Shown here in pieces: positions 6,906 to 52,721 of a DNA stretch of 64,000 nucleotides. The translations under genes were made by a program, and so were the position numbers. Each line of letters starts with the position of its first letter. The stretch's first letter is position 1. Under the pieces are notes generated by a model. It saw only the letters and a program-made list of their open reading frames with translations, was not told the DNA's origin and ran no database searches. Source of the stretch: a plasmid; sequence record CP132210.1; one strand, written 5' to 3'.

Positions 6906-6915
6906 TTAACCCAGG

Positions 6916-16181: not shown

Positions 16182-16257
16182 CATAACCACAATACATCCT
16201 TGAGTGAAGGCCGATAAAGGCGAGTAAAGAAGCGACAAATAAGAATAACCCGGCGTT

Positions 16258-19182: not shown

Positions 19183-19207
19183 TGTCGTTTTCAGAAGACG
19201 GCTGCAC
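19183..19207. repeat. IRi of integron B
   Basis: TGTCGTTTTCAGAAGACGGCTGCAC. Confidence 0.85.
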
Positions 19208-19384
19208 TGAACGTCAGAAGCCGACTGCACTATAGCAGCGGAGGGGTTGGATCCATCAGGCAACGACGGGCTGCTGCCGGCCATCAGCGGACGCAGGGAG
19301 GACTTTCCGCAACCGGCCGTTCGATGCGGCACCGATGGCCTTCGCGCAGGGGTAGTGAATCCGCCAGGATTGACTTGCGCTGCC

Positions 19385-21365
<1,981 letters not shown>

Positions 21366-33570: not shown

Positions 33571-33604
33571 CGTGCTTTATTTTCCGAATTCTGAGACGAC
33601 CCCC
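33567..33604. repeat. 38-bp IR at the mer end, closing the 32-kb transposon
   Basis: CTTAGCGTGCTTTATTTTCCGAATTCTGAGACGACCCCC followed by AATAG. Confidence 0.8.
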
Positions 33605-35453: not shown

Positions 35454-35490
35454 ACCTGCGTGACAACGTAACAAAGCCCTTCTCCAAGAG

Positions 35491-35527
35491 GGGTCGCTTC
35501 AGAATTCGGAAATTAAAGCACGTTAAG
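35491..35527. repeat. left 38-bp IR of the mini Tn3-family element (GGGGTCGCTTCAGAATTCGGAAATTAAAGCACGTTAAG; the first G is shared with the TSD)
   Basis: Direct reading. The right IR is split into an inner 17 bp (35740-35756) and an outer 22 bp (52577-52598). Confidence 0.65.
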
Positions 35528-35756
35528 AGATCCGATACCCAGCAACTGCGCGGCTTTGCGCAAGCTGCCAACCCCTAGAAACAGCATTTTCGTGGTTCTC
35601 GAAACTCGGCTGTTTCAGCCGTGCAATATGAGAGTGGTTTTCGAGAAAGCAACATGCCATACCAGCACTAGCGCGGATCTGATTCTCATTGAAGCCTCTC
35701 AAAAACGATCGTTTGCGAGAAGCTAGACCATGCCAGCGGCTTACCGTACGATTTTT

Positions 35757-36656
35757 AATGAGATGGTCACTCCCTCCTTCCCGGTACTATGCTGAGGACA
35801 GGCTTTCATTCGGAGAACTATCATGGAAAACATTGCGCTCATTGGTATCGATCTGGGTAAAAACTCTTTCCATATTCATTGCCAGGATCGTCGCGGGAAG
35901 GCTGTTTACCGTAAAAAATTTACCCGGCCAAAGTTGATCGAATTTTTGGCGACATGCCCCGCTACAACCATCGCAATGGAAGCCTGTGGCGGTTCTCACT
36001 TTATGGCACGCAAGTTGGAAGAGTTGGGGCATTCCCCAAAGCTGATATCACCACAATTTGTCCGCCCGTTCGTTAAAAGCAATAAAAACGACTTTGTCGA
36101 CGCCGAAGCTATTTGTGAAGCTGCATCGCGTCCGTCTATGCGTTTTGTGCAGCCCAGAACGGAATCTCAGCAGGCAATGCGGGCTCTGCATCGTGTCCGT
36201 GAATCCCTGGTTCAGGATAAGGTAAAAACAACCAATCAAATGCATGCTTTTCTGCTGGAATTTGGCATTAGCGTTCCCCGAGGAGCTGCCGTTATTAGCC
36301 GACTGAGTACCATTCTTGAGGACAATAGTTTGCCTCTTTACCTCAGCCAGTTATTGCTGAAATTACAACAGCATTATCACTATCTTGTTGAGCAGATTAA
36401 AGATTTGGAATCCCAGTTGAAACGAAAGTTGGACGAAGATGAGGTTGGACAGCGCTTGCTGAGCATTCCCTGCGTCGGAACACTGACAGCGAGTACTATT
36501 TCAACTGAGATTGGCGACGGGAAGCAGTACGCCAGCAGCCGTGACTTTGCGGCGGCAACAGGGCTTGTACCTCGGCAGTACAGCACGGGAGGTAGGACGA
36601 CATTGCTGGGAATTAGTAAGCGAGGTAATAAAAAGATCCGAACTTTGTTGGTTCAA
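35757..36656 (+). mobile_element. IS5075/IS4321-type IS110-family element, 5' 900 bp. The transposase is interrupted after ...KIRTLLVQ. The remainder lies at 52147-52576.
   Basis: Tnp MENIALIGIDLGKNSFHIHCQDRRGKAVYRKKF..., about 98% identical to the intact copy at 47637-48963. Inserted 17 bp into a 38-bp IR, as is typical for IS4321/IS5075. Confidence 0.8.
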
Positions 36657-37808
36657 TGGTAATCCCCCCATTTTTTGGAGCACTCAAAAGTAGAGGTCAT
36701 GCGGCCTGTGCCAAGCGCTGTTTCGGCGTGTAGCCGCCCAGCGCCATATTGGGCCGCTCATGGTTATAAACCCACAGCCAGTTCGTGGCAAATTCCTGTA
36801 ACTCATTCAGTGACTCAAACAGGTAATGGCCCAACCAGTCGTAACGCACAGTGCGGTTAAATCGCTCTATGTAGGCATTCTGCTGCGGGTTGCCTGGCTG
36901 GATATACCTCAGCGCAATCCTCTTCTGCTGCGCCCATTGCTTGAGCTCTTCGCTGATGTATTCCGGACCATTATCACAGCGGATAGCGGCTGGTTTGCCC
37001 CGCCACTCGATGACCTGCTCCAGCACCCGTTTGACTCGCGAGGCAGGCAAGGAAAAATCCACCTCGATGCACAGTGCTTCGCGATTGAAGTCATCGATCA
37101 CATTAAACAACCGCACCGAACGACCATCGCTGAGCTGGTCATGCATAAAGTCCATCGACCAACAGTGATTCGGTTGGTCAGGGACTGCCAACGGCTCCGG
37201 CTTGGCCCGCACTAGCCGCTTCTTGGGTTTTATCCGCAGATTGAGCTCTAGCGCCCGATAGATCCGGTAGACCCGCTTGTGGTTCCAGCCAAAGCCTTTG
37301 ACGTTACGCAGGTACAGGAAGCACAGTCCGAAACCCCAGTTGCGCTGGTTGGCGGTGAGGCGCAGCAGCCAGTCGGCAATCTCCTGGTTTTCATCAGCCA
37401 GCACGGGCTGATAACGGTAGCAACCCTCGCTCACCTTGAACACCTGGCAAGCCAGACGGATAGAAATGGCGTAATGAGCCACAGCCTTGGTCGCCATCTC
37501 CCTGCGGGCAGATGGCGTCACCACTTTTTTGCCATCGCCTCGGAGATGATCTCAGCCTTTAGGCGCTCCTCGGCATACATCTTCTTAAGGCGACGATTTT
37601 CCTCTTCCAGCTCTTTGAGGCGCGCCATGAGAGAGGCATCCATGCCACCGAATTTGGAGCGCCACTTGTAGAAGGTGGCGGAGCTGATGCCATGCTCACG
37701 GCAGAGCTCAGGGACGGGTGAACCAGACTCGGCCTGCTTGAGGATGGCGATGATCTGTGCATCGCTAAAGCGTGATGTTTTCATGTAGAACCTCCTGCGT
37801 TCAAGATA
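36657..37808 (-). mobile_element. IS3-family IS, main body (orfB 36697-37524, orfA 37518-37784, -1 frameshift arrangement). Its other terminus lies at 52095-52146.
   Basis: OrfA HTH MKTSRFSDAQIIAILKQAESG. OrfB has the DDE motif with ...[15 protein letters not shown]... Terminal IRs TGGTAATCCCCCCATTTTTTGGAGCACTCAAAAGTA and GGGTAATCCCCCCGAAAAACTGAGGTGCTCATAAGTA. Confidence 0.7.
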
Positions 37809-38072
37809 GGGGTCTGAGGTCCAACCATGCGAAAAACCACGTTAAGAAAGCAACCTTCTGAAAAGGCGACGTTTATCAGTTTTTTTTCCGGCCATAAAGG
37901 GGGCGGAAATTATTCCCTGCACGGGTATTCGCAAGGATTTCGGTAGTGCTCTGGCTCTGCCCCCCATAACCTGGCGGACAGAGCATGATTGGGAAAGCGG
38001 TACCCTCACGGCAGAAACGATTGACGCAGGCTATATTTCTATTATTCTGGAAATATAGATAAAGGAGGTATT

Positions 38073-38253
38073 ATGGATTTAAACACTGCTGCAAACGCAC
38101 TTCGAGAACTGGGCCACCCGACACGTCTCAGCATATACCGGGAGCTGGTCAGGGCGGGTCATGAAGGCCTGCCGGTTGGCGAACTGCAGAAGCACCTTGA
38201 GATTCCTGCCTCCACGCTCAGCCATCATCTTTCAGCGCTGATATCCGCTGGAC
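38073..38253 (+). pseudogene. arsR: ArsR/SmtB-family regulator, C-terminally truncated by IS26
   Basis: MDLNTAANALRELGHPTRLSIYRELVRAGHEGLPVGELQKHLEIPASTLSHHLSAL. Confidence 0.65.
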
Positions 38254-39073
38254 GGCACTGTTGCAAATAGTCGGTGGTGATAAACTTATCATCCCCTTTT
38301 GCTGATGGAGCTGCACATGAACCCATTCAAAGGCCGGCATTTTCAGCGTGACATCATTCTGTGGGCCGTACGCTGGTACTGCAAATACGGCATCAGTTAC
38401 CGTGAGCTGCAGGAGATGCTGGCTGAACGCGGAGTGAATGTCGATCACTCCACGATTTACCGCTGGGTTCAGCGTTATGCGCCTGAAATGGAAAAACGGC
38501 TGCGCTGGTACTGGCGTAACCCTTCCGATCTTTGCCCGTGGCACATGGATGAAACCTACGTGAAGGTCAATGGCCGCTGGGCGTATCTGTACCGGGCCGT
38601 CGACAGCCGGGGCCGCACTGTCGATTTTTATCTCTCCTCCCGTCGTAACAGCAAAGCTGCATACCGGTTTCTGGGTAAAATCCTCAACAACGTGAAGAAG
38701 TGGCAGATCCCGCGATTCATCAACACGGATAAAGCGCCCGCCTATGGTCGCGCGCTTGCTCTGCTCAAACGCGAAGGCCGGTGCCCGTCTGACGTTGAAC
38801 ACCGACAGATTAAGTACCGGAACAACGTGATTGAATGCGATCATGGCAAACTGAAACGGATAATCGGCGCCACGCTGGGATTTAAATCCATGAAGACGGC
38901 TTACGCCACCATCAAAGGTATTGAGGTGATGCGTGCACTACGCAAAGGCCAGGCCTCAGCATTTTATTATGGTGATCCCCTGGGCGAAATGCGCCTGGTA
39001 AGCAGAGTTTTTGAAATGTAAGGCCTTTGAATAAGACAAAAGGCTGCCTCATCGCTAACTTTGCAACAGTGCC
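38254..39073 (+). mobile_element. tnp26: IS26 copy 4. tnp26 at about 38317-39021.
   Basis: IRs at 38254-38267 and 39060-39073. No TSD. Confidence 0.95.
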
Positions 39074-39525
39074 TTTTTTCCTGCGGTGTACGACGCCGAC
39101 GCCGCTCAGGTCCTGATAACACTCCAACCATCTTATCGTTCTGACTGGTATTAAACATAGTTCCAAGACTACCTCTTATTTTAAGAGAGTCGAAGTGTCT
39201 GGTGATCTATGGGGCCAGTCTAGCCCTCTTCCAAGTGTAGGGAGATATAGTCAAAGTTTGCTTCTCCGCCGATGAGTCCGCCCTGCGTCGGATAGTCCGA
39301 TTTTTTACCGGCGAAGCACGGCTCTCCTAACCCTATCTAAAGCGAATAACTTTTTTCAACAGGGCCGCGTGCCAATGCAAGAGCGATAGGCGCTCTACGC
39401 GCCAATTTGACCACTTAAAACAGGTAAATTGAGGGGTTGTAATGTGTTGATGTAACAGGCTTTTATTTTAATGTCTTGGCATATGTATAATGGTAGTCTA
39501 GCCCTCCTTTCAACAAGGAGTACTC

Positions 39526-40182
39526 ATGGAAACCTACAATCATACATATCGGCACCACAACTTTTCACATAAAGACTTAAGTGATCTCACCTTCACCGCT
39601 TGCACATTCATTCGCAGCGACTTTCGACGTGCTAACTTGCGTGATACGACATTCGTCAACTGCAAGTTCATTGAACAGGGTGATATCGAAGGCTGCCACT
39701 TTGATGTCGCAGATCTTCGTGATGCAAGTTTCCAACAATGCCAACTTGCGATGGCAAACTTCAGTAATGCCAATTGCTACGGTATAGAGTTCCGTGCGTG
39801 TGATTTAAAAGGTGCCAACTTTTCCCGAACAAACTTTGCCCATCAAGTGAGTAATCGTATGTACTTTTGCTCAGCATTTATTTCTGGATGTAATCTTTCC
39901 TATGCCAATATGGAGAGGGTTTGTTTAGAAAAATGTGAGTTGTTTGAAAATCGCTGGATAGGAACGAACCTAGCGGGTGCATCACTGAAAGAGTCAGACT
40001 TAAGTCGAGGTGTTTTTTCCGAAGATGTCTGGGGGCAATTTAGCCTACAGGGTGCCAATTTATGCCACGCCGAACTCGACGGTTTAGATCCCCGCAAAGT
40101 CGATACATCAGGTATCAAAATTGCAGCCTGGCAGCAAGAACTGATTCTCGAAGCACTGGGTATTGTTGTTTATCCTGACTAA
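39526..40182 (+). CDS. qnrS1: pentapeptide-repeat quinolone-resistance protein QnrS1, 218 aa
   Basis: METYNHTYRHHNFSHKDLSDLTFTACTFIRSDFRRANLRDTTFVNCKFIEQGDIEGCHFDVADLRDASF... Confidence 0.9.
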   Translation: METYNHTYRHHNFSHKDLSDLTFTACTFIRSDFRRANLRDTTFVNCKFIEQGDIEGCHFDVADLRDASFQQCQLAMANFSNANCYGIEFRACDLKGANFSRTNFAHQVSNRMYFCSAFISGCNLSYANMERVCLEKCELFENRWIGTNLAGASLKESDLSRGVFSEDVWGQFSLQGANLCHAELDGLDPRKVDTSGIKIAAWQQELILEALGIVVYPD

Positions 40183-40500
40183 TTGCTTTGATGTGTGATT
40201 TTAAACGCTCAAATTTATAAAACGAATAATATTGTCAACCTTGCAATAATAGACATAGGGACAACCATGTATAAATTTTTACCCTCAGGCGTCTTCACAA
40301 TAGAGCCATATAGCAGTGGGTCACTTAGTGGGCTTAATTTTTCCATTAAAGATAATATTAATATTGCTCAGTATAAAACATCATATGGTAGCCCATCTTG
40401 GCAAGTAAACATAAGGCTGCCATTTATAAGGCACTGTTGCAAAAATGTGGAGGTGATAGGGGTACTACGCCGGAACCCCAGATTTTTCCGTCCGTTCAAA

Positions 40501-41115
40501 TTATCCACGGTTGAACAGCTTGATCCCGTCCGCCCGCAGTTGACCAACAGGGGAAATATGCCTGTACAAAGTTTGCCGGGTTATCCCAAGTTCCTGGCAT
40601 AGCGTACTGACCTTTGTTTCTGATTGTCCCATTGATGCCATTGCCAGTCGCAGTTTGACTGGCGTCATTTTATAAGGTCGGCCGCCGTTCCGCCCACGGG
40701 CTCTTGCTGATGCCAGACCTGCAGTCGTTCTTTCAGCAATCAGTTCGCGCTCAAACTCCGCCAGTGCGGCAAAGATACCGAAGACAAGCTTGCCAGCGGC
40801 CGTTGTTGTGTCGATAGTCGCCCCGTGACCGGTCAGCACTTTCAGACCGGTCCCCCTCGCGGTCAGGTCGTGCACTGTATTAATGAGATGACGAAGATCA
40901 CGACCGAGGCGGTCCAGCTTCCATACGACCAGCGTGTCTCCGGGTCGTAGTGCTTTCAGACAGGCTGTAAGTCCAGGACGCTCTTCTCGTTTGCCCGATG
41001 CCCGGTCCTCATAAAAATGTGCGGCATCAACACCTGCGGCGATCAGTGCATCACGTTGTAAATCATTCGTCTGCGAACCATCCGCTTTTGACATCCGAAT
41101 ATATCCGATGAACAT
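40501..41115 (-). CDS. tnpR: Tn3-family serine resolvase TnpR-like, 204 aa
   Basis: MFIGYIRMSKADGSQTNDLQRDALIAAGVDAAHFYEDRASGKREERPGL... C-terminal HTH QTLYRHI. Confidence 0.75.
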   Translation of the reverse strand: MFIGYIRMSKADGSQTNDLQRDALIAAGVDAAHFYEDRASGKREERPGLTACLKALRPGDTLVVWKLDRLGRDLRHLINTVHDLTARGTGLKVLTGHGATIDTTTAAGKLVFGIFAALAEFERELIAERTTAGLASARARGRNGGRPYKMTPVKLRLAMASMGQSETKVSTLCQELGITRQTLYRHISPVGQLRADGIKLFNRG

Positions 41116-41356
41116 ATTTCCTCTGTCACATATACGTTCGATTATGTGACATTCTGATTTGGGTACCATAATCTGTCAACGGTAGTCACATTACCCGTAA
41201 TTTAAATTATGACACGTAAAGGTTCTATGTTAATGATAATGTGACAAGCGCGTTTAAATAGGCAGAGAGCATGAAAAACCTCGGGGCAGCCATCGAATGA
41301 TGCCATCTACAGGGGTTAAAATAACCACCATCATTTCATAACAATACCTGCTGACT
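41116..41356. promoter_or_regulatory. probable res site of the Tn3-like remnant (repeated TGTCACAT / ATGTGACA subsite-like motifs)
   Basis: Several imperfect dyads of TGTCACA..TGTGACA upstream of the resolvase. Confidence 0.35.
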
Positions 41357-41947
41357 ATGAAGATCTACGTCATCAAAATAGCAGTTCATGGAGTCAGTCC
41401 GATGGTCTGGCGTCGGCTGAGAATTGCTGCCGACACGTCACTGGCCGCGCTTCACTTCATTTTCCAGATAGTGCAGGGCTGGGGGGACGACCATCTCCAT
41501 CAATTTCACATTTATGGCAAAGATTACGGTATCTCCTACGAAGGAGGCATCGGTTTTGTCGATAATCCGTTCCGGGTCGTGATTGATGATTTTGCTTTTG
41601 ATGCTGGCGATCGCTTTACCTATGAATACAATTTCTTTGAGCACTGGCTTCATGACATTCGTGTTGAGGCCATTTATGAAAACTCTACGCTGAAAGCGCC
41701 GTTTTGTATAAGCGGCCATGGTATGCCCGGAGCCACAGCTGCGGATGAGTTCGATAAAACCCTGGCGTTTCTTGAAGCTATCGTTAATGCGGATGATGAA
41801 ACAACGGTCGGCGAGATCCGCCCTTTTGCTGACGACCTGGATGCTGTCAGGTTCAACCGCCACAAAATCAACCGGCAACTGAGCAGGCTCGACCTTGCAT
41901 CTCCGGTACTGGAGCCTGAAGTTATCTGGCTGGGCCGTCGTCGCTGA
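41357..41947 (+). CDS. hypothetical protein, 196 aa
   Basis: An ORF of plausible composition with no motif recognised. Confidence 0.35.
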   Translation: MKIYVIKIAVHGVSPMVWRRLRIAADTSLAALHFIFQIVQGWGDDHLHQFHIYGKDYGISYEGGIGFVDNPFRVVIDDFAFDAGDRFTYEYNFFEHWLHDIRVEAIYENSTLKAPFCISGHGMPGATAADEFDKTLAFLEAIVNADDETTVGEIRPFADDLDAVRFNRHKINRQLSRLDLASPVLEPEVIWLGRRR

Positions 41948-42083
41948 CTGATGTCTATAAAGGTATACGTTTTCAGCATGCCTCTCAGATCCCCGAAAAA
42001 ATGTCTATAAACCTCCCTAAATCAGTGTTTATGGATTATTCTTTAAATCTCTATGATGTTTAAAGACCTTCCGGAGGTTTTGC

Positions 42084-42656
42084 GTGCAATATGCCTACAT
42101 CAGGGTAAGCTCGGCCGATCAGAATACGGCCCGTCAGGAAGAGGCATTGTCAAAGGCGGGTTTTCAGCCTGATAAAATTTGTGTTGAGCATGCCAGCGCG
42201 AAGGACACAAACCGCCCGGGGTTACAGGAACTCCTGGGGCAATTACGCCCTGGTGATACGCTTCTGGTTCATTCCATCGATCGCCTTTGCCGGAATATGT
42301 CGGATATGTGCGCTGTCACCACCCGGCTTCGTGACCAGGGCGTTACCCTTATTTTTCTGAAAGAGCAGCTGACGTTCAGCGCCGGCACAAACAATCCGAT
42401 GCAGGAACTGCAGCTGCACATGATGTCGGCATTCAGCCAGTTTGAACGAGCCTTACTGAAGGAAAGGCAGGCCGACGGCATCGCCGCGAAAAAAGCACGG
42501 GGTGAAAAAACAGGGCGCCCCGGCGCCGATATCAAAAAGATCCAGGAAATTGACGCACTCAGAAGCAGAGGGGTCAGGCTCAGGATCGCCTGCGACCATG
42601 CGGGCCTTGGCGTTTCCACATATTATAAGCTTCGTCACCAGATGAACAACCAGTAG
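42084..42656 (+). CDS. serine recombinase (resolvase/invertase family), 190 aa
   Basis: MQYAYIRVSSADQNTARQEEALSKAGFQPDKICVEHASAKDTNRPGLQELL... Catalytic Ser near the N-terminus. Confidence 0.7.
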   Translation: MQYAYIRVSSADQNTARQEEALSKAGFQPDKICVEHASAKDTNRPGLQELLGQLRPGDTLLVHSIDRLCRNMSDMCAVTTRLRDQGVTLIFLKEQLTFSAGTNNPMQELQLHMMSAFSQFERALLKERQADGIAAKKARGEKTGRPGADIKKIQEIDALRSRGVRLRIACDHAGLGVSTYYKLRHQMNNQ

Positions 42657-42689
42657 CCGGGAGATAGTCATCCACCACAGCAGGAGGCA

Positions 42690-44084: not shown

Positions 44085-44178
44085 CTCACGCTGCCCCAAT
44101 ATTTTTTATGCTCTCCTAAAAGAACTTTCCGCTAAGCGATAGACTGTATGTAAACACAGTATTGCAAGGACGCGGAAC

Positions 44179-44600
44179 ATGCCTCATGTGGCGGCCAGGA
44201 CGGCCAGCCGGGATCGGGATACTGGTCGTTACCAGAGCCACCGACCCGAGCAAACCCTTCTCTATCAGATCGTTGACGAGTATTACCCGGCATTCGCTGC
44301 GCTTATGGCAGAGCAGGGAAAGGAATTGCCGGGCTATGTGCAACGGGAATTTGAAGAATTTCTCCAATGCGGGCGGCTGGAGCATGGCTTTCTACGGGTT
44401 CGCTGCGAGTCTTGCCACGCCGAGCACCTGGTCGCTTTCAGCTGTAAGCGTCGCGGTTTCTGCCCGAGCTGTGGGGCGCGGCGGATGGCCGAAAGTGCCG
44501 CCTTGCTGGTTGATGAAGTACTGCCTGAACAACCCATGCGTCAGTGGGTGTTGAGCTTCCCGTTTCAGCTGCGTTTCCTGTTTGGGGTCGTTTGCGGGAA
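44179..44600 (+). pseudogene. IS91-family (rolling-circle, HUH) transposase N-terminal fragment
   Basis: Zinc-binding N-terminal domain CESCHAEHLVAFSCKRRGFCPSCGARR. The reading frame degenerates before strB. Confidence 0.55.
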
Positions 44601-44689
44601 GGGGCGGAATCCTACGCTAAGGCTTTGGCCAGCGATATTCTCCGGTGAGATTGATGTGTTCCCAGGGGATAGGAGAAGTCGCTTGATAT

Positions 44690-45526
44690 CTAGTATGACG
44701 TCTGTCGCACCTGCTTGATCGCGGCCGCGATAGCTAGATCGCGTTGCTCCTCTTCTCCATCCGCGTTCCAAGCTGCGGAAAGGCACCCATAAGCGTACGC
44801 CTGGTCGAGCAGGCGACGCGGATCGACGTCCAGCGCACGAGAGAATGCGTCCGCCATCTGTGCAATGCGTCTAGGATCGAGACAAAGGTCGTCTCTGTCA
44901 GCCGGATCGTAGAACATATTGGCGGCGCCAAAGCCCACTTCACCGACCAGACCGACGGGATCTATCACCAGCCAGCCGCGACTGGAGAACATGATGTTTT
45001 CATGATGCAGATCGCCATGTAGCCCACGCAGTTCCGAGGCATTGCTCATCATTTGATCGGCTATAATCGCCGCGTGGACGTAGTCAGTTTGACAACCTGC
45101 GTTTTGATCATCGCGCGCCCGCTGAAACAAAGCTGCAAAGCGATCCCGGATCGGGAGAAGGGCAGAAGGCAGGGGTTCCTCAGATGCGGCATACAGCTTC
45201 GCCATTAGTTCCGCTGCAATTTCGGTCGCCTGGTAGTCGCCGTGCTCGGCAACGATGTGAGAGAGCATTCGCTCCCCGGCATATTCGAGCAACATCAGAT
45301 TGTTCTCACGACCGAGCAACCGGACTGCTCCCCTCCCATTGCGCCATACCAGATAGTCGGCCCCGCGCAGTTCATCAGCAATGTCTTTTATAGGTTTCAA
45401 TCCCTTGACGATTGCAGGAGTCCCGTCTGGCAATGAAACTTTCCAAACGAGGCTGGAAAAGGTGTCCGCAATGAGAACAGGTTGCGAAACGTGCCAATGA
45501 GCAGGAAAAACAGGCGGCATGAACAT
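44690..45526 (-). CDS. strB: streptomycin phosphotransferase APH(6)-Id (StrB)
   Basis: MFMPPVFPAHWHVSQPVLIADTFSSLVWKVSLPDGTPAIVKGLKPI... Confidence 0.9.
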   Translation of the reverse strand: MFMPPVFPAHWHVSQPVLIADTFSSLVWKVSLPDGTPAIVKGLKPIKDIADELRGADYLVWRNGRGAVRLLGRENNLMLLEYAGERMLSHIVAEHGDYQATEIAAELMAKLYAASEEPLPSALLPIRDRFAALFQRARDDQNAGCQTDYVHAAIIADQMMSNASELRGLHGDLHHENIMFSSRGWLVIDPVGLVGEVGFGAANMFYDPADRDDLCLDPRRIAQMADAFSRALDVDPRRLLDQAYAYGCLSAAWNADGEEEQRDLAIAAAIKQVRQTSY

Positions 45527-46329
45527 CAACCCCAAGTCAGAGGGTCCAATCGCAGATAGAAGGCAAGGCGTTCGCGGTCGGGGGCTTCGATCCCCAATAC
45601 ATTGAATAGGACAGCGAAGGCGCGCTCTGCTTCATCTGGCGCTGCCCAGTTCTCTTCGGCGTTAGCAATCATGAGTGCCAAATCGGCATAGCGATCTGCT
45701 GTTCCGAGCCGCCCAAGGTCGATCAGACCCGTGCATTGAAGAGTTTTAGGGTCCACCATGAAGTTCGGCATGCAGGGATCACCATGGCAAACAACCATAT
45801 CGGTGCGCTCTTGGTCGAGCCGCACCGGTAGCTCTCGTTCGACACGAGCCAAAAGATCGAGCTGCGGCGTACTCTTGTCCTCGTCCGGTAAGAAGTCGGG
45901 ATTGACGGCATTGCGGGACACCACATCAACGGCGCGTCCGAACATTCGCGACAGCCTGCGCTCAAACGGACATTGATCAACCGATAGGCTGTGAACAGCG
46001 CCAAGTTGCTGCCCCATTGACGGCCACGCTTTGAGCAAATCCGCTCCAGACAGATCAGCCGCCGGTACTCCCGGAATTGCCGTTATCACCAAGCATGCAC
46101 CCTCCTGTTCCTCCTGCCAGTTGATGACCTCGGGGCAAGCCACACCTCGACCTTTGAGCCAAATGAGGCGGTCACGCTCTCCAGCGAGCTCACCGCGGCG
46201 GGAAGCAGGTGCGATTTTCGCGAAGGCATGCCCGTCACCACGTCGAAAAACAAAATCACCAGATTCTCCGCCTCTGACAGGCAACCAGTCAGAATGCGAT
46301 TCACCAAAAAAAATATTAGTTCGATTCAA
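45526..46329 (-). CDS. strA: streptomycin phosphotransferase APH(3'')-Ib (StrA)
   Basis: MNRTNIFFGESHSDWLPVRGGESGDFVFRRGDGHAFAKIAPASRRGELAGERDRLIWL... Confidence 0.9.
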   Translation of the reverse strand: MNRTNIFFGESHSDWLPVRGGESGDFVFRRGDGHAFAKIAPASRRGELAGERDRLIWLKGRGVACPEVINWQEEQEGACLVITAIPGVPAADLSGADLLKAWPSMGQQLGAVHSLSVDQCPFERRLSRMFGRAVDVVSRNAVNPDFLPDEDKSTPQLDLLARVERELPVRLDQERTDMVVCHGDPCMPNFMVDPKTLQCTGLIDLGRLGTADRYADLALMIANAEENWAAPDEAERAFAVLFNVLGIEAPDRERLAFYLRLDPLTWG

Positions 46330-46389
46330 TGGAGGTTCCTTCAGTTTTCTGATGAAGCGCGAATATAGAGAAATATCCCGAATGTGCAG

Positions 46390-47205
46390 TTAACGAATTC
46401 TTGCGGTTTCTTTCAGCGCCGCCAATACCGCCAGCCCGTCGCGCAAGGGGCGCGGCTCGTGTGTGCGGATGAAGTCAGCTCCACCTGCGGCGGCGGCAAG
46501 CTCTGCAGCGAGTGTCGCGGCCCCGACATCCCCCGGACCACGGCCTGTGAGCGCGCGCAGAAAGGATTTGCGCGAAACAGACAGAAGCACCGGCAAATCG
46601 AAGCGCAGCCGCAATTCATCGAACCGCGCCAGCACCGAGAGCGAGGTTTCGGGAGCAGCCCCCAGAAAAAACCCCATGCCGGGATCAAGGACAAGGCGGT
46701 TGCGTTTGATACCGGCACCCGTCAGCGCCGCGATGCGCGCGTCAAAGAACGCCGCAATGTGATCCATGATGTCGCCAGCGGGTGCCTCGCGCCGATCTGC
46801 CTGCCCGTCTTGCACCGAATGCATAACGACGAGTTTGGCAGATGATTTCGCCAATTGCGGATAGAACGCAGCGTCTGGAAAACCGCGAATATCATTGAGA
46901 TAGGCCACACCACGCGACAAGGCATAGGCTTGCGTCGCGGGTTGATAACTGTCGAGCGAGACGGGAATGCCATCTGCCTTGAGCGCGTCCAGCACCGGCG
47001 CGATACGCGCGATTTCTGTGTCGGACGAAACAGGCGCGGCGTCGGGATTGCTGGATGCCGGACCGAGGTCGATCACATCTGCCCCCTCGGCCATCAGCTT
47101 ACGCGCCTGCGCAATGGCTGCGTCTGGCGCCAGATACCGGCCTCCATCGGAGAAACTGTCCGAGGTTATGTTGACGATGCCGAAAATGATGAGCGATTTA
47201 TTCAT
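46390..47205 (-). CDS. sul2: sulfonamide-resistant dihydropteroate synthase Sul2
   Basis: MNKSLIIFGIVNITSDSFSDGGRYLAPDAAIAQARKLMAEGADVIDLGPASSNPDAAPV... Confidence 0.9.
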   Translation of the reverse strand: MNKSLIIFGIVNITSDSFSDGGRYLAPDAAIAQARKLMAEGADVIDLGPASSNPDAAPVSSDTEIARIAPVLDALKADGIPVSLDSYQPATQAYALSRGVAYLNDIRGFPDAAFYPQLAKSSAKLVVMHSVQDGQADRREAPAGDIMDHIAAFFDARIAALTGAGIKRNRLVLDPGMGFFLGAAPETSLSVLARFDELRLRFDLPVLLSVSRKSFLRALTGRGPGDVGAATLAAELAAAAGGADFIRTHEPRPLRDGLAVLAALKETARIR

Positions 47206-47534
47206 GGGGGCTTCTATAATAATAATAATCGAGCATGAGTCTCATACGGATGCTCGGGTCGAAAGGGAATCCCCAGGCGAGTAACCTGTTTGCGGTGCTC
47301 CATTAGCTGCAGGAGCAGAATAGCATACATCTGGAAGCAAAGCCAGGAAAGCGGCCTATGGAGCTGTGCGGCAGCGCTCAGTAGGCAATTTTTCAAAATA
47401 TTGTTAAGCCTTTTCTGAGCATGGTATTTTTCATGGTATTACCAATTAGCAGGAAAATAAGCCATTGAATATAAAAGATAAAAATGTCTTGTTTACAATA
47501 GAGTGGGTATCGGAGACGAAGAAGGACAAGGTAC

Positions 47535-47614
47535 ATGCTGACCGATACCAAGCTGCGCAATCTCAAGCCCAGGGACAAACTCTACAAAGTGAATGACCGG
47601 GAAGGTCTCTATGT
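47535..47614 (+). pseudogene. int: P4-type integrase N-terminal remnant (about 26 codons), cut by the Tn21 IR
   Basis: MLTDTKLRNLKPRDKLYKVNDREGLYV matches the conserved N-terminal arm of P4-family integrases. Confidence 0.45.
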
Positions 47615-47636
47615 GGGGGTCGCCTCAGAAAACGGA
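47615..47636. repeat. outer 22 bp of Tn21-type IRtnp (GGGGGTCGCCTCAGAAAACGGA). The inner 17 bp (AAATAAAGCACGCTAAG) lies at 48964-48980, after IS5075.
   Basis: Direct reading. IS5075 is inserted at the canonical position inside the IR. Confidence 0.8.
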
Positions 47637-48963
47637 ATCTATGGTCACTCCCGTTTTTGCAACACCGATTTTGACGACAAGTTGGCTTGCTTGAATCTAT
47701 CCGGCGTCTGAATGGGATTTTATTCCCGCGCCTCGATGAGTTCCGCGCCTGATGAACCTCCAGAAAATATACGGCTTCAATGAGCCTTTCCGTTTTACAG
47801 GTTCCTCAACAGGCCGGTGGGCCGTTAGTATCATCAATATCAGTATTCGCAAAACCAGATGAATGATTGTTTAAACTGGTGTATTTCTGCCTTTATGCTT
47901 CGTAAGTTTGCTGTCGCGCCGTCAGTGCCCAGGCTATTCTGGCCAGCTTGTTTGCCAGAGCACAGGTGACGACAAAGTTGCTTTTCCGACACAACAACTC
48001 CCTGACCCAGTCGGCCAACTTGCCAGACTGGTGTTCCAGTTTTTGTATGAATACCCTGGCACACTGAACCAACAAAGTTCGGATCTTTTTGTTGCCCCGC
48101 TTGCTAATCCCTAACAATGTCGTCCGACCTCCCGTGCTGTACTGTCGGGGTACCAGCCCTGTTGCCGCCGCAAAGTCACGGCTGCTGGCGTACTGCTTCC
48201 CGTCGCCAATCTCAGTTGAAATAGTACTGGCAGTCAGCGTTCCAACGCAGGGAATACTCAGCAAGCGCTGTCCAACCTCATCTTCGTCCAACTTTCGTTT
48301 CAACTGAGATTCCAGATCTTTAATCTGCTCAACAAGATAGTGATAATGCTGTTGTAATTTCAGCAGTAACTGGCTGAGATAAAGAGGCAAACTACTGTCC
48401 TCAAGAAGGGTACTCAGTCGACTAATAACGGCAGCACCTCGCGGAACGCTGATACCAAATTCCAGCAGAAAAGCATGCATCTGATTAGTTGTTTTCACCT
48501 TATCCTGAACCAGGGATTCACGGACACGATGCAGAGCTCGCATTGCCTGCTGAGATTCGGTTCTGGGCTGCACGAAACGCATAGATGGACGTGATGCTGC
48601 TTCACAGATAGCTTCAGCATCAACGAAGTCATTTTTGTTGCTTTTAACGAATGGGCGGACAAATTGCGGTGATATCAGCTTTGGAAAATGCCCTAACTCT
48701 TCCAGCTTGCGTGCCATAAAGTGAGAACCGCCACAGGCTTCCATCGCGATGGTTGTTGCCGGGCATGTCGCCAGAAATTCGATTAGCTTTGGTCGGGTGA
48801 ATTTTTTACGGTAAACGGCCTTCCCACGATGATCCTGACAATGAATATGGAAAGAGTTCTTACCCAGATCGATACCAATAAGCGCAATGTTTTCCATGAT
48901 GGTTCTCCGAATGAAAGCCTGTCCTCAGCATAGTACTGGGAAGGAGGGAGTGACCATCTCATT
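47637..48963 (-). mobile_element. IS5075/IS4321-type IS110-family element, intact, 1327 bp. Transposase at 47893-48897, 334 aa.
   Basis: MENIALIGIDLGKNSFHIHCQDHRGKAVYRKKFTRPKLIEF... The ends ATCTATGGTCAC... and ...GGGAGTGACCATCTCATT are embedded in the Tn21 IR. Confidence 0.85.
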
Positions 48964-48975
48964 AAATAAAGCACG

Positions 48976-50741
48976 CTAAGCCGGTTGCAGCGGTCGTAGC
49001 GGCCTGAACTTGCCCGCGCCGATCTTGGCGCTGCTGCGCCAGAGGTAATCGCCGGTGAGGTTGATGTGCTCCCAACCGAGCGGCGACAGGTACTGCAACA
49101 GCGCGTCATCAACGGCATGGCCGTTGCCACGCAGCGCGTGCGCAGCCCGTTCCAGATAGACCGTGTTCCACAACACGACGGCAGCCGTTACCAGATTGAG
49201 GCCGCTAGCCCGGTAGCGCTGCTGCTCGAAACTGCGGTCGCGGATTTCACCCAGGCGGTTGAAAAACACTGCCCTGGCCAGCGCATTGCGCGCCTCGCCC
49301 TTGTTCAGGCCGGCATGCACGCGGCGGCGCAGTTCCACGCTTTGCAGCCAGTCCAGGATGAACAGCGTGCGCTCGATGCGGCCCAGCTCGCGGAGCGCCA
49401 CGGCCAGGCCGTTCTGGCGTGGGTAGCTGCCGAGCTTTCGGAGCATCAGGGAGGCCGTCACCGTGCCCTGCTTGATCGAGGTGGCCAGCCGCAGGATTTC
49501 GTCCCAATGGGCGCGGACGTGCTTGATGTTGAGCGTGCCGCCGATCATGGGTTTCAGCGCGTCATAGGCGGCGTCGCCCTTCGGGATGTAGAGCTTGGTG
49601 TCGCCCAGGTCGCGGATGCGCGGCGCGAAGCGGAAGCCCAGGAGGTGCATCAGGGCGAAGACGTGATCGGTGAAGCCCGCCGTGTCGGTGTAATGCTCCT
49701 CGATCCGCAAGTCGGACTCGTGGTACAGCAGGCCGTCGAGCACGTAGGTCGAATCGCGCACGCCGACGTTCACGACCTTGGTGTGAAATGGCGCGTACTG
49801 GTCAGAAATGTGGGTGTAGAACGTCCGCCCTGGGCTGCTCCCGTATTTCGGGTTGATGTGGCCGGTGCTCTCGGCCTTGCTGCCGGTGCGGAAGTTCTGG
49901 CCGTCCGACGATGAGGTGGTGCCGTCGCCCCAGTGCTCGGCGAAGGGATGGCGGAACTGTGCGTTGACCAGATCGGCCAGCGCCGCCCCGTAGGTTTCGT
50001 CGCGGATGTGCCAGGCTTGCAGCCAAGCCAGCTTGGCGTAGGTCGTGCCGGGGCAAGACTCCGCCATCTTGGTCAGGCCCAGGTTGATCGCGTCGGCGAG
50101 GATCGTGGTCAGCAACAGGTTCTTGTCTTTGGCCGGGTCGCCCGATTTCAGATGCGCGAAATGCCGAGTGAAGCCCGTCCATTCGTCCACCTCCAGCAGC
50201 AGTTCGGTGATCTTGACGTGCGGCAGGATCATTGCCGTCTGGTCGATCAGCGCTTGGGCGGTGTCGGGTACCGCCGCGTCGAGCGGCGTGATCTTCAAGC
50301 CTGACTCGGTGATGATGGCGTCCGGCAGCTCGTTGGCCGTCGCCATACGGTTGACGGTGGCAAGCTGTGTTTCCAGCAGCGTCAGCCGGTCGTTCAGGTA
50401 CCGGTTGCAGTCGGTGGCCACGGCCAGCGGCAATTCGCTGGCCTGCTTGAGGCTGGCGAATTTCGCGGGCGGCACCAGGTAGTCCTCGAAGTCCTTGAAC
50501 TGGCGCGACCCCTGCACCCAGATGTCGCCGGAACGCAACGCGTTCTTCATCTCCGACAGCGCGCACAGTTCGTAGTAGCGCCGGTCGATGCCGGTGTCGG
50601 TCATGACCAGCTTCTGCCAGCGCGGCTTGATGAACTCGGTCGGCGCGTCGGCGGGCACCTTGCGGGCGTTGTCGCTGTTCATGCCGCGCAGCACCTCGAT
50701 GGCGTCGAGCACGTCCTTCGCGGCGGGAGCGGCCCGCAGCT
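48976..50741 (-). pseudogene. tnpA: Tn21 transposase TnpA, C-terminal 589 codons. The N-terminus was removed by IS26.
   Basis: ...[46 protein letters not shown]... ends RPLRPLQPA at the IR. It is distinct from the Tn1721-type TnpA at 1497-4463. Confidence 0.85.
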
Positions 50742-51561
50742 GGCACTGTTGCAAAGTTAGCGATGAGGCAGCCTTTTGTCTTATTCAAAGGCCTTACATT
50801 TCAAAAACTCTGCTTACCAGGCGCATTTCGCCCAGGGGATCACCATAATAAAATGCTGAGGCCTGGCCTTTGCGTAGTGCACGCATCACCTCAATACCTT
50901 TGATGGTGGCGTAAGCCGTCTTCATGGATTTAAATCCCAGCGTGGCGCCGATTATCCGTTTCAGTTTGCCATGATCGCATTCAATCACGTTGTTCCGGTA
51001 CTTAATCTGTCGGTGTTCAACGTCAGACGGGCACCGGCCTTCGCGTTTGAGCAGAGCAAGCGCGCGACCATAGGCGGGCGCTTTATCCGTGTTGATGAAT
51101 CGCGGGATCTGCCACTTCTTCACGTTGTTGAGGATTTTACCCAGAAACCGGTATGCAGCTTTGCTGTTACGACGGGAGGAGAGATAAAAATCGACAGTGC
51201 GGCCCCGGCTGTCGACGGCCCGGTACAGATACGCCCAGCGGCCATTGACCTTCACGTAGGTTTCATCCATGTGCCACGGGCAAAGATCGGAAGGGTTACG
51301 CCAGTACCAGCGCAGCCGTTTTTCCATTTCAGGCGCATAACGCTGAACCCAGCGGTAAATCGTGGAGTGATCGACATTCACTCCGCGTTCAGCCAGCATC
51401 TCCTGCAGCTCACGGTAACTGATGCCGTATTTGCAGTACCAGCGTACGGCCCACAGAATGATGTCACGCTGAAAATGCCGGCCTTTGAATGGGTTCATGT
51501 GCAGCTCCATCAGCAAAAGGGGATGATAAGTTTATCACCACCGACTATTTGCAACAGTGCC
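50742..51561 (-). mobile_element. tnp26: IS26 copy 5. tnp26 at about 50794-51498.
   Basis: IRs at 50742-50755 and 51548-51561. No TSD. Confidence 0.95.
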
Positions 51562-52061
51562 CAGTCCACGCCTCAGAACTTGTGGGCTCGCTTTTAAAAA
51601 GTTCCCGTCCGTCAGGGCTGGCGCAGGCGATTATGGAGGTGGGACGGGTCAACAAGACGCTGTACCTCCTCAACTACATTGATGATGAAGAATATCGTCG
51701 CAGGATACTGACTCAGCTTAACCGGGGAGAAGGCCGTCACGCCGTGGCAAGGGCGATCTGTTACGGCCAACGTGGTGAGATTAGAAAACGTTACCGTGAG
51801 GGGCAGGAGGATCAACTGGGTGCGCTGGGGCTTGTCACTAACGCAGTTGTATTGTGGAACACGCTTTATATGCAGGAAGCGCTATCACATTTGCGCAGCG
51901 CTGGTGAGATCCCGGAAGACGAGCATATCTCACGCCTGTCGCCACTGATGTACGGTCATATCAACATGCTGGGACATTATACGTTCACGCTGCCGGAAAA
52001 TATTCTGAAGGGAGAGTTGAGGCCATTAAATTTCAATTCAAACAATGAATTATTGCCTTAA
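51562..52061 (+). pseudogene. tnpA: C-terminal 166 codons of the TnpA of the 14.3-kb Tn3-family transposon. The rest was removed by IS26.
   Basis: ...LNYIDDEEYRRRILTQLNRGEGRHAVARAICYGQRGEIRKRYREGQEDQLGALGLVTNAVVLWNT... Its stop lies inside the 38-bp IR. Confidence 0.7.
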
Positions 52062-52094
52062 CGTGGTTTTTTACACGATTGAACCTCGAACCCC

Positions 52095-52146
52095 AGATAC
52101 GAGAAAATTCTACTTATGAGCACCTCAGTTTTTCGGGGGGATTACC
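52095..52146. repeat. second terminus (IR) of the IS3-family element. It is separated from the element's body by the 14.3-kb transposon.
   Basis: TACTTATGAGCACCTCAGTTTTTCGGGGGGATTACC is an imperfect inverted copy of the 36657-36692 end. It is followed by the CAA TSD. Confidence 0.65.
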
Positions 52147-52576
52147 CAATGTGCCAGGGTATTCATACAAAAACTGGAACACCAGTCTGGAAAATTGGCC
52201 GATTGGGTCAGGGATTTACTGTGCCGGAAAAGCAACTTTGTCGTCACTTGTGCTCTGGCAAACAAGCTGGCCAGAATAGCCTGGGCCCTAACGGCACGAC
52301 AGCAAACTTATGTAGCATAACGGCAGAAATACACCGGTTTAAAGAATTACTGATCTGGTTTTGCGAATACTGATATTGATGATACTAACGGCCCACCGGC
52401 CTGTTGAGGAACCTGTAAAACGGAAAGGCTCATTGAAGCCGTATATTTTCTGGAGGTTCATCAGGCGCGGAACTCATCAAGGCGCGGGAATAAAATCCCA
52501 TTCAGACGCCGGATAGATTCAAGCAAGCCAACTTGTCGTCAAAATCGGTGTTGCAAAAACGGGAGTGACCATAGAT
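52147..52576 (+). mobile_element. 3' 430 bp of the IS5075-type element whose 5' part is at 35757-36656
   Basis: Starts CAATGTGCCAGGGTATTCATAC and ends ...GGGAGTGACCATAGAT, matching the intact copy. It is followed by the outer 22 bp of a Tn21-type IR at 52577-52598. Confidence 0.8.
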
Positions 52577-52598
52577 TCCGTTTTCTGAGGTGACCCCC
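52577..52598. repeat. outer 22 bp of the right IR of the mini Tn3-family element (reverse complement GGGGGTCACCTCAGAAAACGGA)
   Basis: Pairs with the inner 17 bp at 35740-35756 across the nested IS. Followed by the TSD AAGAG. Confidence 0.7.
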
Positions 52599-52654
52599 AA
52601 GAGGACGAAGGGCTTTGTTCCACACAAACAATTCCAATCGACTACCGCATAATA

Positions 52655-52700
52655 TAGAATTACGGTAATTACCGTATTACGATAATTACCATAAACATTA
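52655..52700. promoter_or_regulatory. kfrA promoter/operator region with the perfect palindrome ACGGTAATTACCGT and repeated TAATTACC half-sites
   Basis: ATTACGGTAATTACCGTATTACGATAATTACCATAA, 25-65 bp upstream of the kfrA start. Confidence 0.5.
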
Positions 52701-52721
52701 CAGTTTAAAAGGAATGCGCTC

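Follow-up and report, generated by a model that had tools for sequence, protein, structure and literature searches.

Four nested mobile elements in the tus-kfrA intergenic region of an IncA-type plasmid

Overview of the nest

The plasmid sequence CP132210.1 was analysed over a 64-kb window (the whole stretch of DNA considered here) that holds four mobile elements, IMU, IS4321, ISAs22, and a 14.3-kb resistance unit, each lying within the preceding one. The initial annotation had described a four-deep nest recording insertion order, and in-silico excision upheld this description: all four levels were found at the coordinates listed below, and the host reassembles exactly at every level. Target-site duplications, claimed for every level, accompany three of the four (CAAGA for IMU, CAAT for ISAs22, and AGATA for the level-4 unit); IS4321, of the IS1111 group, has none. 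The probability that three independent flanking repeats (5, 4, and 5 bp long) all arose by coincidence is about 4e-9; together with the fact that four catalogued elements are rebuilt exactly, this leaves chance as no realistic account of the nest. Very probably, four successive insertions took place in the tus-kfrA intergenic region of a pRA1-type IncA plasmid of the VIM-1 lineage, each disabling its host element. All four parts are already known elements, and the nest is an ordinary instance of resistance-plasmid build-up.

The plasmid backbone

Two backbone genes flank the nest:

34575–35453, + strand: Tus-like replication terminus-binding protein gene, left neighbour (NCBIfam NF002810, E 8e-155)
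52722–53678, + strand: kfrA-like DNA-binding gene (318 aa), right neighbour

The Tus-like gene is annotated likewise in NZ_CP107721.1. Compared with related plasmids, the kfrA-like gene is shorter by an in-frame deletion of 84 bp.

Removal of IMU with one CAAGA leaves the empty site CCTTCTCCAAGAGGACG, as in pRA1. The expectation that related plasmids would have an empty site upstream of kfrA was borne out in pRA1 and, at 96–99.8% identity, in a further 20 or more of the records listed. The backbone had been taken for IncC; identity at the site is 99.3–99.8% with pRA1-type plasmids and about 90% with IncC, and by this comparison the backbone is classed as IncA, not IncC.

Level 1: IMU

The outermost element is divided between the two edges of the nest:

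35485–35489, no strand: target duplication, left copy CAAGA, repeated at 52598–52602; single copy in the pRA1 empty site
35490–35756, + strand: IMU positions 1–267, comprising the left inverted repeat (IRL, 35490–35527), a 212-bp interior, and the inner 17 bp of the right inverted repeat (IRR, 35740–35756)
52577–52597, + strand: outer 21 bp of the IRR, which joins 35490–35756 to restore IMU
52598–52602, no strand: target duplication, right copy CAAGA, matching 35485–35489

When reassembled, these parts are identical at 288 of 288 positions to the published 288-bp IMU (integron mobilization unit), so the mini-element is a known Tn3-derived miniature element, not a new one. The annotation had recognized an element of roughly 290 bp made only of inverted repeats (IRs) and spacer, flanked by AAGAG; its IR-only nature stands, the length is 288 bp, and AAGAG is the CAAGA repeat shifted by one base, the GGGG element ends leaving the G ambiguous. 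Its picture of a TIME-like element serving as bait for an IR-hunting IS likewise holds as regards the Tn3 derivation and the IR-targeting IS, and we infer mobilisation in trans: step 1 would have been insertion of IMU by a trans-supplied Tn21-subgroup Tn3-family transposase, with duplication of CAAGA.

IMU was reportedly described in 2009 by Poirel and colleagues in AAC (53:2492). It is a TIME by the definition of Szuplewska et al. 2014 (PMC4133298) and Gomi & Yano 2026 (PMC13367494), and its mobilisation in trans, with formation of a 5-bp duplication, has been achieved experimentally (PMC3184786). The present copy shares with published IMU not only its sequence but also Tn21-subgroup-type 38-bp IRs, a 5-bp duplication, and the lack of an encoded transposase; however, published IMU is a pair flanking the blaGES-5 integron, whereas this copy is solitary, sits in an IncA backbone, and is split by IS4321. 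An IMU interrupted in this way would therefore be missed by identity- and coverage-based surveys such as the one that reported IMU in 7/11,572 genomes (PMC13367494).

IMU copies elsewhere, identical or 95.5% identical, are flanked by ATGAT (in merT of an IncP-6 plasmid) or TGTTT (pHX3). The IncP-6 copy holds an independent IS4321 at the same IR position, and within that lineage uninterrupted and IS-interrupted IMUs share one site and one duplication; in-situ insertion of the IS therefore does occur. The merT locus was published as an 'unknown 293-bp insertion' with IS4321R or IS5075, to which the authors assigned 20-bp IRs and a 9-bp repeat, and was not recognised as IMU (PMC11265224). Tn5563c and Tn5563e of IncP-6 (IncG) KPC plasmids thus resemble the present locus in carrying an IMU that is interrupted at the same IR position, by IS5075 or IS4321R, but their IMU sits in merT, with duplication ATGAT, and without further nesting (PMC11265224).

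Level 2: IS4321

35757–36657, + strand: IS4321 5' part, 901 bp; tnp starts at 35823, and the last 4 bp, CAAT (36654–36657), are the left ISAs22 duplication
52147–52576, + strand: right CAAT copy (52147–52150), then IS4321 3' part (52151–52576), which includes a 256-bp non-coding region with AAAACGGAAA at 52417–52426

Excision of ISAs22 (1198 bp) and one CAAT gives, as had been predicted, an uninterrupted IS of 1327 bp whose 334-aa ORF is intact. At least 60 IS4321 copies match it from end to end at 100% identity, and it is IS4321, not IS5075; the earlier IS5075/IS4321-type assignment was right as to length. Within the IMU right IR, it has 17 bp of the repeat on its inner side and 21 bp on its outer side. 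Removing IS4321 in turn (35757–36657 and 52151–52576) restores the expected 38-bp IR from 17 + 21 bp, with no duplication. Elements of the IS1111 group generate none.

Insertion of IS4321 and IS5075 into the 38-bp IRs of Tn21-family transposons was reportedly described by Partridge and Hall in the Journal of Bacteriology in 2003 (185:6371). The targets of IS4321 are Tn21-type IRs, and about 900 such insertions have been catalogued; in the IS1111 group, an RNA guides the choice of target (PMC11187229). The present IS matches these seekRNA-guided insertions at 100% and shares their fixed placement 21 bp from the IR tip, their single orientation, and their lack of a duplication; the usual target is the IR of a full transposon, whereas here it is that of a miniature non-autonomous element. 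The left IR of IMU has AATT where the target core has AAAA, and is without IS4321; the 3' non-coding region of IS4321 contains 10 nt that match the target core. In step 2, IS4321, by means of a DEDD transposase and RNA-guided target choice, would have entered the right IR between IR positions 21 and 22 and spared the AATT-bearing left IR, and the split IR would have immobilised IMU.

Level 3: ISAs22

36658–37808, - strand: ISAs22 right-hand 1151 bp (IS3 family, IS407 group), with orfB and orfA (36697–37784) and an AAAAAAG frameshift motif; AGATA at 37804–37808 is the left level-4 duplication
52095–52146, - strand: right AGATA copy (52095–52099), then ISAs22 left-hand 47 bp (52100–52146, IRL end)

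Removal of 37809–52094 and one AGATA joins the two parts (36658–37808 and 52100–52146) into an uninterrupted IS3-family element, as foreseen. This is ISAs22, whose 1198 bp equal the published length (PMC10741216) and which is 99.6–99.9% identical to independent Aeromonas and Citrobacter copies with the same first and last bases. The assignment to the IS3 family was thus correct, but the duplication is the 4-bp CAAT rather than CAA; 4-bp duplications also flank three independent ISAs22 copies. In step 3, this Aeromonas-associated IS entered the IS4321 transposase gene near codon 278, duplicating CAAT and inactivating IS4321.

Level 4: the resistance unit

37809–52094, + strand: level-4 unit, 14,286 bp, carrying qnrS1, strAB, and sul2, with AGATA on both sides
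37809–37846 and 52057–52094: its 38-bp IRs, matching at 31/38 positions
38254–39073, + strand: IS26 copy A, forming an 820-bp perfect inverted repeat with 50742–51561 (annotation)
39526–40182, + strand: qnrS1 (annotation of the identical record NZ_CP107721.1)
42693–44084, + strand: ISKpn19 transposase gene (annotation)
44584–44621: Tn5393-type IR near strB-strA-sul2 (IR scan)
44690–47205, - strand: strB (aph(6)-Id), strA (aph(3'')-Ib), sul2 (annotation)
47616–48980, - strand: second IR-targeting insertion, IS5075 with split IR
47637–48963: IS5075, 1327 bp, dividing a Tn21-type 38-bp IR into 21 + 17 bp
48979–50741, - strand: truncated Tn21-subgroup tnpA (C-terminal 592 aa), cut by IS26
50742–51561, - strand: IS26 copy B, inverted relative to copy A
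51564–52061, + strand: remnant of the unit's own tnpA (last 165/1002 codons and stop)

The unit lies 24 bp upstream of ISAs22 orfA, as the annotation placed it, and is bounded by AGATA, but the term used there, Tn3-family transposon, does not apply in the autonomous sense: its transposase genes are present as fragments only. The 592-aa fragment, from an unrelated tnpA, matches NCBIfam transpos_Tn3 at profile positions 381–954 only and is 36% identical to the transposase belonging to the level-4 end, of which the other remnant is a piece (165/165 identical to WP_004118541.1 residues 838–1002). The 64-kb window contains no transposase that could act on the level-4 IRs, a point against the insertion history proposed here; its sole full-length Tn3-family tnpA belongs to the TnAs1 type (31% identical), and the IRs of that element match the level-4 IRs at only about 17–21/38 positions. 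An intact cognate tnpA adjoins an identical IRR in an IncHI2 plasmid. The unit is thus an IR-bounded, IS26-remodelled, Tn6292-derived mosaic rather than a self-sufficient transposon, and for it to move, either a transposase must be provided in trans or there must have been an intact ancestor, since lost. No 8-bp signature accounting for the arrangement of the two IS26 copies was found, which also counts against the proposed history. The internal IS5075 occupies the same IR position and orientation as the outer IS4321, to which it is 93.4% identical.

In an IncN plasmid, TATAT flanks a version of the unit that shares 11.09 kb at 100% identity, extending to both IR tips and including the IS26 junctions; this version lacks the 3.2-kb strB-strA-sul2 block (44115–47311). 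Because only tnpA fragments are present and the matching unit occurs in this other context, the level-4 unit probably moved in trans. In step 4, then, a Tn6292-derived unit already remodelled by IS26, ISKpn19, and IS5075, and lacking a working transposase, would have come most likely from an IncN plasmid, with the cognate transposase acting in trans and AGATA being duplicated on landing.

Tn6292 was described by Feng et al. 2016 and shares with level 4 the IR-orf198-IS26-qnrS1-tnpR-ISKpn19 architecture and 38-bp IRs (PMC5027574). The level-4 interior from IS26 to IS26 corresponds to 'ARI-I' of p550_IncA_VIM_1, reported as identical to IncN plasmid pKC-BO-N1-VIM (PMC7466171). These accounts present an IS26-flanked island or an IncN fipA insert, and no description of the outer IRs, of AGATA, or of a location inside ISAs22, IS4321, or IMU was found in them (PMC5027574, PMC7466171).

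Order of insertion and rival explanations

The order of steps 2, 3, and 4 is documented, because public IncA plasmids show each state: the empty site; levels 1+2 in pIncA_Silv108 (2226/2228 bp match, IS4321 junction intact); levels 1–3 in pIBAC_Incx3_A/C, pIB2020_IncA, and pEco15-1, each containing the joined 3430-bp stretch as an exact substring; and levels 1–4 in NZ_CP107721.1 and NZ_OQ111275.1. The chronology, first called unambiguous, has such documentation for these steps but not for step 1 before step 2: IMU alone at the CAAGA site was not found in PLSDB, complete E. coli genomes, GTDB genome contigs, or JGI metagenomes, and that part of the order is therefore undocumented and inferred from mechanism. 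The same result would fit joint arrival of IMU and IS4321 as a pre-formed 1615-bp composite, of a kind that does occur in IncP-6 plasmids. We consider this improbable, as the 21 + 17 bp split leaves the terminal cleavage end on one side of the IS and the inner part that binds transposase on the other, and by established Tn3-family biochemistry an IR end split in this way should be unusable. Moreover, the IncP-6 lineage shows insertion in situ, and its IS4321 differs from the present one at 2 positions. Reversal of the whole chronology, with fewer-level plasmids arising from the four-level form by precise excision, is less credible still. It draws on pR210-2-VIM (levels 1+2), which has lost 1 bp at a distance of 2 bp from where ISAs22 inserted, a change that resembles an excision footprint; for this reason that plasmid may derive from a levels 1–3 plasmid by near-precise excision and not be ancestral. 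Yet separate precise losses of a 14.3-kb unit and an IS in several independent plasmids are far less likely than insertion, the intermediates just listed are exact or have an intact junction, and in pRA1-type and IncC backbones the site is, as a rule, empty.

For level 4, the alternative to en-bloc arrival in trans is that an intact self-transposing relative entered ISAs22, generating AGATA, and had its interior swapped in situ by IS26-mediated events or homologous recombination with the IncN copy. Such exchange would have ample substrate in the two IS26 copies and in the shared ends (445 bp and 533 bp), IS26 of level 4 demonstrably drove later rearrangement in NZ_OQ282880.1, and IncA and IncN VIM-1 plasmids co-circulate in the same Italian setting (PMC7466171). 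This course is unlikely, if the most serious of the rivals: at AGATA, IncA records have the unit absent, the same unit, or a derivative, and none has a different or intact element; Tn6292 is known only as a 'presumed prototype' with tnpA already disrupted (PMC5027574); and IncN/IncA identity up to both IR tips is most simply explained by the single en-bloc move. That the nest is an artefact of assembly, given two identical IS26 copies and two IS copies 93% identical, is scarcely conceivable, since the 17.7-kb region recurs at 100% identity in two complete assemblies made independently, which differ in species and country, the intermediate states are present in other independent assemblies, and every junction is a unique sequence with matching duplications.

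Nested elements between tus and kfrA

Four mobile elements lie one inside the next between a tus-like and a kfrA-like gene (window positions 35485-52602). They are referred to here as levels 1 to 4, with steps 1 to 4 denoting their respective insertions.

Components and borders of the nest (window positions)
34575-35453: tus-like terminus-binding gene, one border of the nest
35490-35756 and 52577-52597: level 1, integron mobilization unit (IMU), 288 bp when joined
35757-36657 and 52151-52576: level 2, IS4321, 1327 bp when joined
36658-37808 and 52100-52146: level 3, ISAs22, 1198 bp once level 4 is excised
37809-52094: level 4, resistance unit of 14,286 bp with 38-bp Tn3-family inverted repeats (IRs) and AGATA on either side
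40501-41115 and 42084-42656: serine-recombinase genes within level 4
52722-53678: kfrA-like gene, the other border

Multiresistance plasmids routinely contain such nested insertions, and all four components are already known, each being a catalogued element at or near 100% identity. The findings are annotation refinements and no new kind of system; their value lies mainly in annotation and epidemiology, and the understanding of how the IMU, IS4321, ISAs22 and Tn6292 families work stays unchanged. What appears to be absent from accessible published descriptions is the IMU as the element beneath the nest, the recurrent use of its right IR (IRR) as a target by IS4321 and IS5075, the placement of the resistance region 'ARI-I' inside a pair of Tn6292-type IRs that has a duplication of its own, and the occurrence of the level-4 unit at two sites although it lacks a transposase. 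The nest locus is not described in PMC9845580 or PMC9709138. Exact boundaries and names are thereby supplied for a part of the IncA VIM-1 plasmids which accessible papers present only as an IS26-flanked island.

The IMU at the base of the nest

The rejoined level-1 element is the same at 288 of 288 bases as the IMU of Table S2 in Gomi & Yano 2026 (PMC13367494). Its ends are Tn3-family 38-bp terminal IRs (GGGG...ACGNTAAG), and six-frame translation of its 288 bp, a length below 500 bp that holds no transposase gene, gave no ORF of meaningful length. The initial annotation had proposed a mini-element of two Tn3-family IRs and a spacer, resembling the Tn3-derived miniature elements known as TIMEs; that description holds, except that the size is 288 bp and not about 290 or 292 bp. 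The left IR (IRL) matches IRR at 28 of 38 positions, and is closer to a Tn21-type IR (34/38); IRR matches a TnAs1/Tn1721-type IR at 31/38. A flanking 5-bp duplication is likewise present as claimed, but it reads CAAGA, not AAGAG, when GGGG is taken as the end of the element. An empty site upstream of kfrA in related plasmids, which had also been predicted, occurs as a single copy of CCTTCTCCAAGAGGACG in pRA1, and the span is exactly 293 bp shorter at this site in at least 21 of the records listed.

According to PMC3184786, the IMU was described in 2009 by Poirel et al. and transposes with a 5-bp duplication when transposase is given in trans. Copies that are identical or 95.5% identical are found in merT of IncP-6 KPC plasmids and in pHX3 of A. 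veronii, and the 5-bp duplications differ by locus: CAAGA in the window, ATGAT in pKPC-cd17 and TGTTT in pHX3. The merT locus of the IncP-6 plasmids has been reported as an 'unknown 293-bp insertion region' into which IS4321R or IS5075 had inserted (PMC11265224). This region, in merT of Tn5563b/c/d/e on the IncP-6 (IncG) KPC plasmids, is the 288-bp IMU plus the ATGAT duplication. Of the two papers that treat the merT insert (PMC11265224, PMC5487458), one gives it 20-bp IRs and a 9-bp repeat and the other says only that IS4321 disrupts merT. More plasmid lineages hold the IMU than surveys report, because interrupted copies go undetected.

More distant relatives in Aeromonas, Pseudomonas, Diaphorobacter and Comamonas show 72-74% identity to the IMU, and every one is precisely 288 bp long, free of indels (L005:3001-3288, alignment A1). 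Conserved in their interiors are inverted repeats (TTCTCGAAA / TTTCGAGAA, 34 nt apart) and an imperfect palindrome of 32 bp (positions 204-235); in IMU numbering the inverted repeats occupy 107-158 and 204-235. Together these repeats suggest a putative protein-binding site, possibly res-like. Flanking duplications were absent in all four contexts examined for these distant relatives, which therefore carry no information on mobility. The copy in P. aeruginosa adjoins blaIMP-1 integron cassettes.

IS4321 and ISAs22

Excision of ISAs22 leaves, as the initial annotation had anticipated, an uninterrupted 1327-bp IS with an intact 334-aa ORF for a DEDD-type transposase. Its identification as IS5075 has to be revised: at least 60 copies annotated IS4321 or IS4321R match the rebuilt element from end to end at 100% identity, and IS5075 is instead the copy inside level 4, 93.4% identical to the outer IS4321. 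Direct reading of the sequence shows 12-bp subterminal inverted repeats (ATGGTCACTCCC), set in from the left end by 6 bp and from the right end by 4 bp. IS4321, a member of the IS1111 group in the IS110 family, cuts the IMU right IR into an inner 17 bp and an outer 21 bp, which on excision restore the expected 38-bp IR; nothing is duplicated at this insertion, contrary to the claim that every level retains an intact target duplication.

Tn21-family IRs are known targets of IS4321 and IS5075, and elements of the IS1111 group select their targets by RNA guidance (PMC11187229). The IS5075 in level 4 cuts its own IR identically to IS4321, with the orientation likewise shared. On pWW14A-KPC2-type IncP-6 plasmids, IS4321 independently hit the merT-site IMU at the same IR position, so that a fixed position and single orientation within 38-bp IRs are seen in three instances (outer IS4321, inner IS5075 and the IncP-6 copy). 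Repeated hits by IS4321/IS5075 on the IR of a miniature element are documented. In the 3' non-coding region of IS4321, AAAACGGAAA (52417-52426) is the reverse complement of the IR core across the insertion point, and this candidate seekRNA guide segment fits the RNA-guided model. The IMU left IR carries AATT in place of the AAAA of the target core, a difference that would account for the left IR having been spared.

An uninterrupted IS3-family element of about 1.2 kb was likewise expected after removal of level 4, and the 1198-bp ISAs22 was recovered; its length and assignment to the IS407 group agree with PMC10741216, and PGAP names it an ISAs22 family transposase. It encodes an 88-aa orfA, which orfB overlaps in the -1 frame at an AAAAAAG frameshift motif, and level 4 does insert upstream of orfA, 24 bp from its start. 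In Aeromonas, Citrobacter and IncC plasmids, the alignment of independent copies begins at base 2 of the initial reconstruction, and 4-bp duplications flank three of these copies (CCTG, GTAC, CGGC). The duplication here is therefore the 4-bp CAAT (36654-57 and 52147-50) and not the 3-bp CAA first assigned.

Order of the insertions

Public plasmids represent the empty site, levels 1 and 2, levels 1-3 and levels 1-4, and these intermediate states order steps 2, 3 and 4 by direct evidence. Levels 1 and 2 alone are carried by pIncA_Silv108, with the junction GGTTCAATGTGCC intact and 2226 of 2228 bp matching. A plasmid with the IMU alone at the CAAGA site, a state that the junction ACGATTTTTTCCGTTTTCTGAGGTGACCCCCAAGAGGACG would mark, was not found in PLSDB or in complete E. 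coli genomes, nor by an exact junction match among JGI metagenomes and the genome contigs of GTDB. We infer that the IMU preceded IS4321, because a split IR is expected to be unusable as a transposon end. The chronology proposed earlier as unambiguous thus has direct support for steps 2 to 4, while its first step is deduced. Each insertion disabled its host, splitting the IMU IR, interrupting the IS4321 transposase gene and parting the ISAs22 left end from orfA, and the nest is consequently frozen in place. The marker series from the empty site through levels 1+2 and 1-3 to 1-4 could serve to type and order plasmids of the IncA VIM-1 lineage.

In pR210-2-VIM (NZ_CP034084.1), which also has levels 1 and 2 only, IS4321 reads GGTTCAATGGCC in place of GGTTCAATGTGCC (about position 13470 of the locus). 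This 1-bp deletion lies 2 bp from the very position at which ISAs22 inserted, and could be the footprint of a near-precise ISAs22 excision or a sequencing error.

The level-4 unit and its probable movement in trans

Excision of level 4 with one AGATA rejoins the host into a 3430-bp stretch that is an exact substring of pIBAC_Incx3_A/C, pIB2020_IncA and pEco15-1, which bears out the reconstruction. Inside the unit are two inverted IS26 copies, qnrS1, the two serine-recombinase genes, ISKpn19, a strB-strA-sul2 block with a Tn5393-type IR, and IS5075 in a Tn21-type IR. The 8-bp flanks of the two IS26 copies show no direct or reverse-complement duplication of the kind that signals simple insertion or intramolecular inversion. 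Level 4 was initially called a Tn3-family transposon, and its IRs (31/38 positions matching) and 5-bp duplication accord with that; an intact TnpA of its own (about 1000 aa) is missing from the unit, which holds fragments only. The last 165 of 1002 codons (residues 838-1002) are left of its own transposase, and a second tnpA fragment of 592 aa is 36% identical to that enzyme and so belongs to a different subgroup. The sole full-length Tn3-family tnpA in the window, of TnAs1 type (about 1518-4436), is 31% identical to the level-4 enzyme. An intact cognate tnpA beside an identical IRR was found in an IncHI2 plasmid.

The ends of the unit match 'Tn6292', a presumed unit transposon with qnrS1 from IncN1 plasmids (PMC5027574). 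In the IncN plasmid p01B18012_B_KPC, the unit is flanked by TATAT, and it matches the window copy at 100% over 11.09 kb, both IS26 junctions included; the strAB-sul2 block of 3196 bp and a segment of 193 bp are the sole differences between the two copies. The presence of a transposase-less unit at two sites with different 5-bp duplications is best explained, from sequence comparison, by en-bloc transposition under a transposase provided in trans, in preference to insertion of an intact relative whose interior was swapped later. Trans-mobilisation of a large resistance unit without its own transposase between IncN and IncA plasmids is thereby pointed to. The interior between the two IS26 copies appeared in print as 'ARI-I', described there as identical to an IncN plasmid, with no mention of the outer IRs or the nesting (PMC7466171).

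A broader reading would treat the smallest and largest elements of the nest, the IMU and the Tn6292-derived unit (qnrS1, strAB, sul2), as Tn3-family passengers that are non-autonomous and were mobilised in trans. In that case the epidemic IncA VIM-1 lineage would have gained a multiresistance block from an IncN plasmid by trans-mobilisation of a unit lacking a transposase, in contrast to the IS26 activity implied by the published account of 'ARI-I', and the strictly 288-bp IMU family may hold an uncharacterised resolution or recombinase-binding site. Taken as a whole, we regard this reading as an even call.

In the descendant plasmid NZ_OQ282880.1 (locus 3500-17700), the first level-4 IS26 is joined straight to a tni/In110-type VIM-1 integron region, which indicates a later IS26-mediated inversion or rearrangement through the level-4 IS26 copies. 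A level-4-type IRL (GGGGTCTGAGGT...) also lies on the minus strand of pRA1 (NC_012885.1, locus 2966, about record position 126790), about 250 bp upstream of tus and directed toward an IS26, so that the resistance island of pRA1 is bounded by a remnant of the level-4 transposon family. For IncX3 pOXA-181-type plasmids, match coordinates suggested a minimal 'IRL-445 bp-IS26-533 bp-IRR' skeleton, which was discarded, as the right-end piece was not adjacent in the one plasmid read.

Backbone and main resistance island

The backbone had been taken for IncC; the nest flanks share 99.3-99.8% identity with pRA1-type plasmids and about 90% with IncC, and the assignment is IncA. Across window positions 35300-53000, NZ_CP107721.1 (E. 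coli, USA) and NZ_OQ111275.1 (E. hormaechei), both of them complete plasmids typed IncA, match at 100% over the full length, so that the structure does not depend on a single assembly. NZ_CP107721.1, deposited as linear, matches the window at 100% for 1-12078 and from 29966 onward. Between 12079 and 29965 there is only one 1355-bp match (19183-20537) and otherwise nothing aligns to the end of the record; its assembly is probably incomplete or different in the integron region. Beside the nest, kfrA encodes 318 aa in the window versus 346 aa in pIBAC and other relatives, because 84 bp (28 aa) are deleted in frame from the coiled-coil part, at a point lying between short repeats.

The main resistance island of about 32 kb (1464-33603) is bounded by two Tn3-family IRs.

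Boundaries of the main resistance island (window positions)
1464-1501: TnAs1/Tn1721-type IR, beside an intact tnpA
33566-33603: Tn21-type IR, at the mer end

The 5-bp direct repeat CAATA flanks the island on either side, and the main island thus has an intact target duplication of its own.
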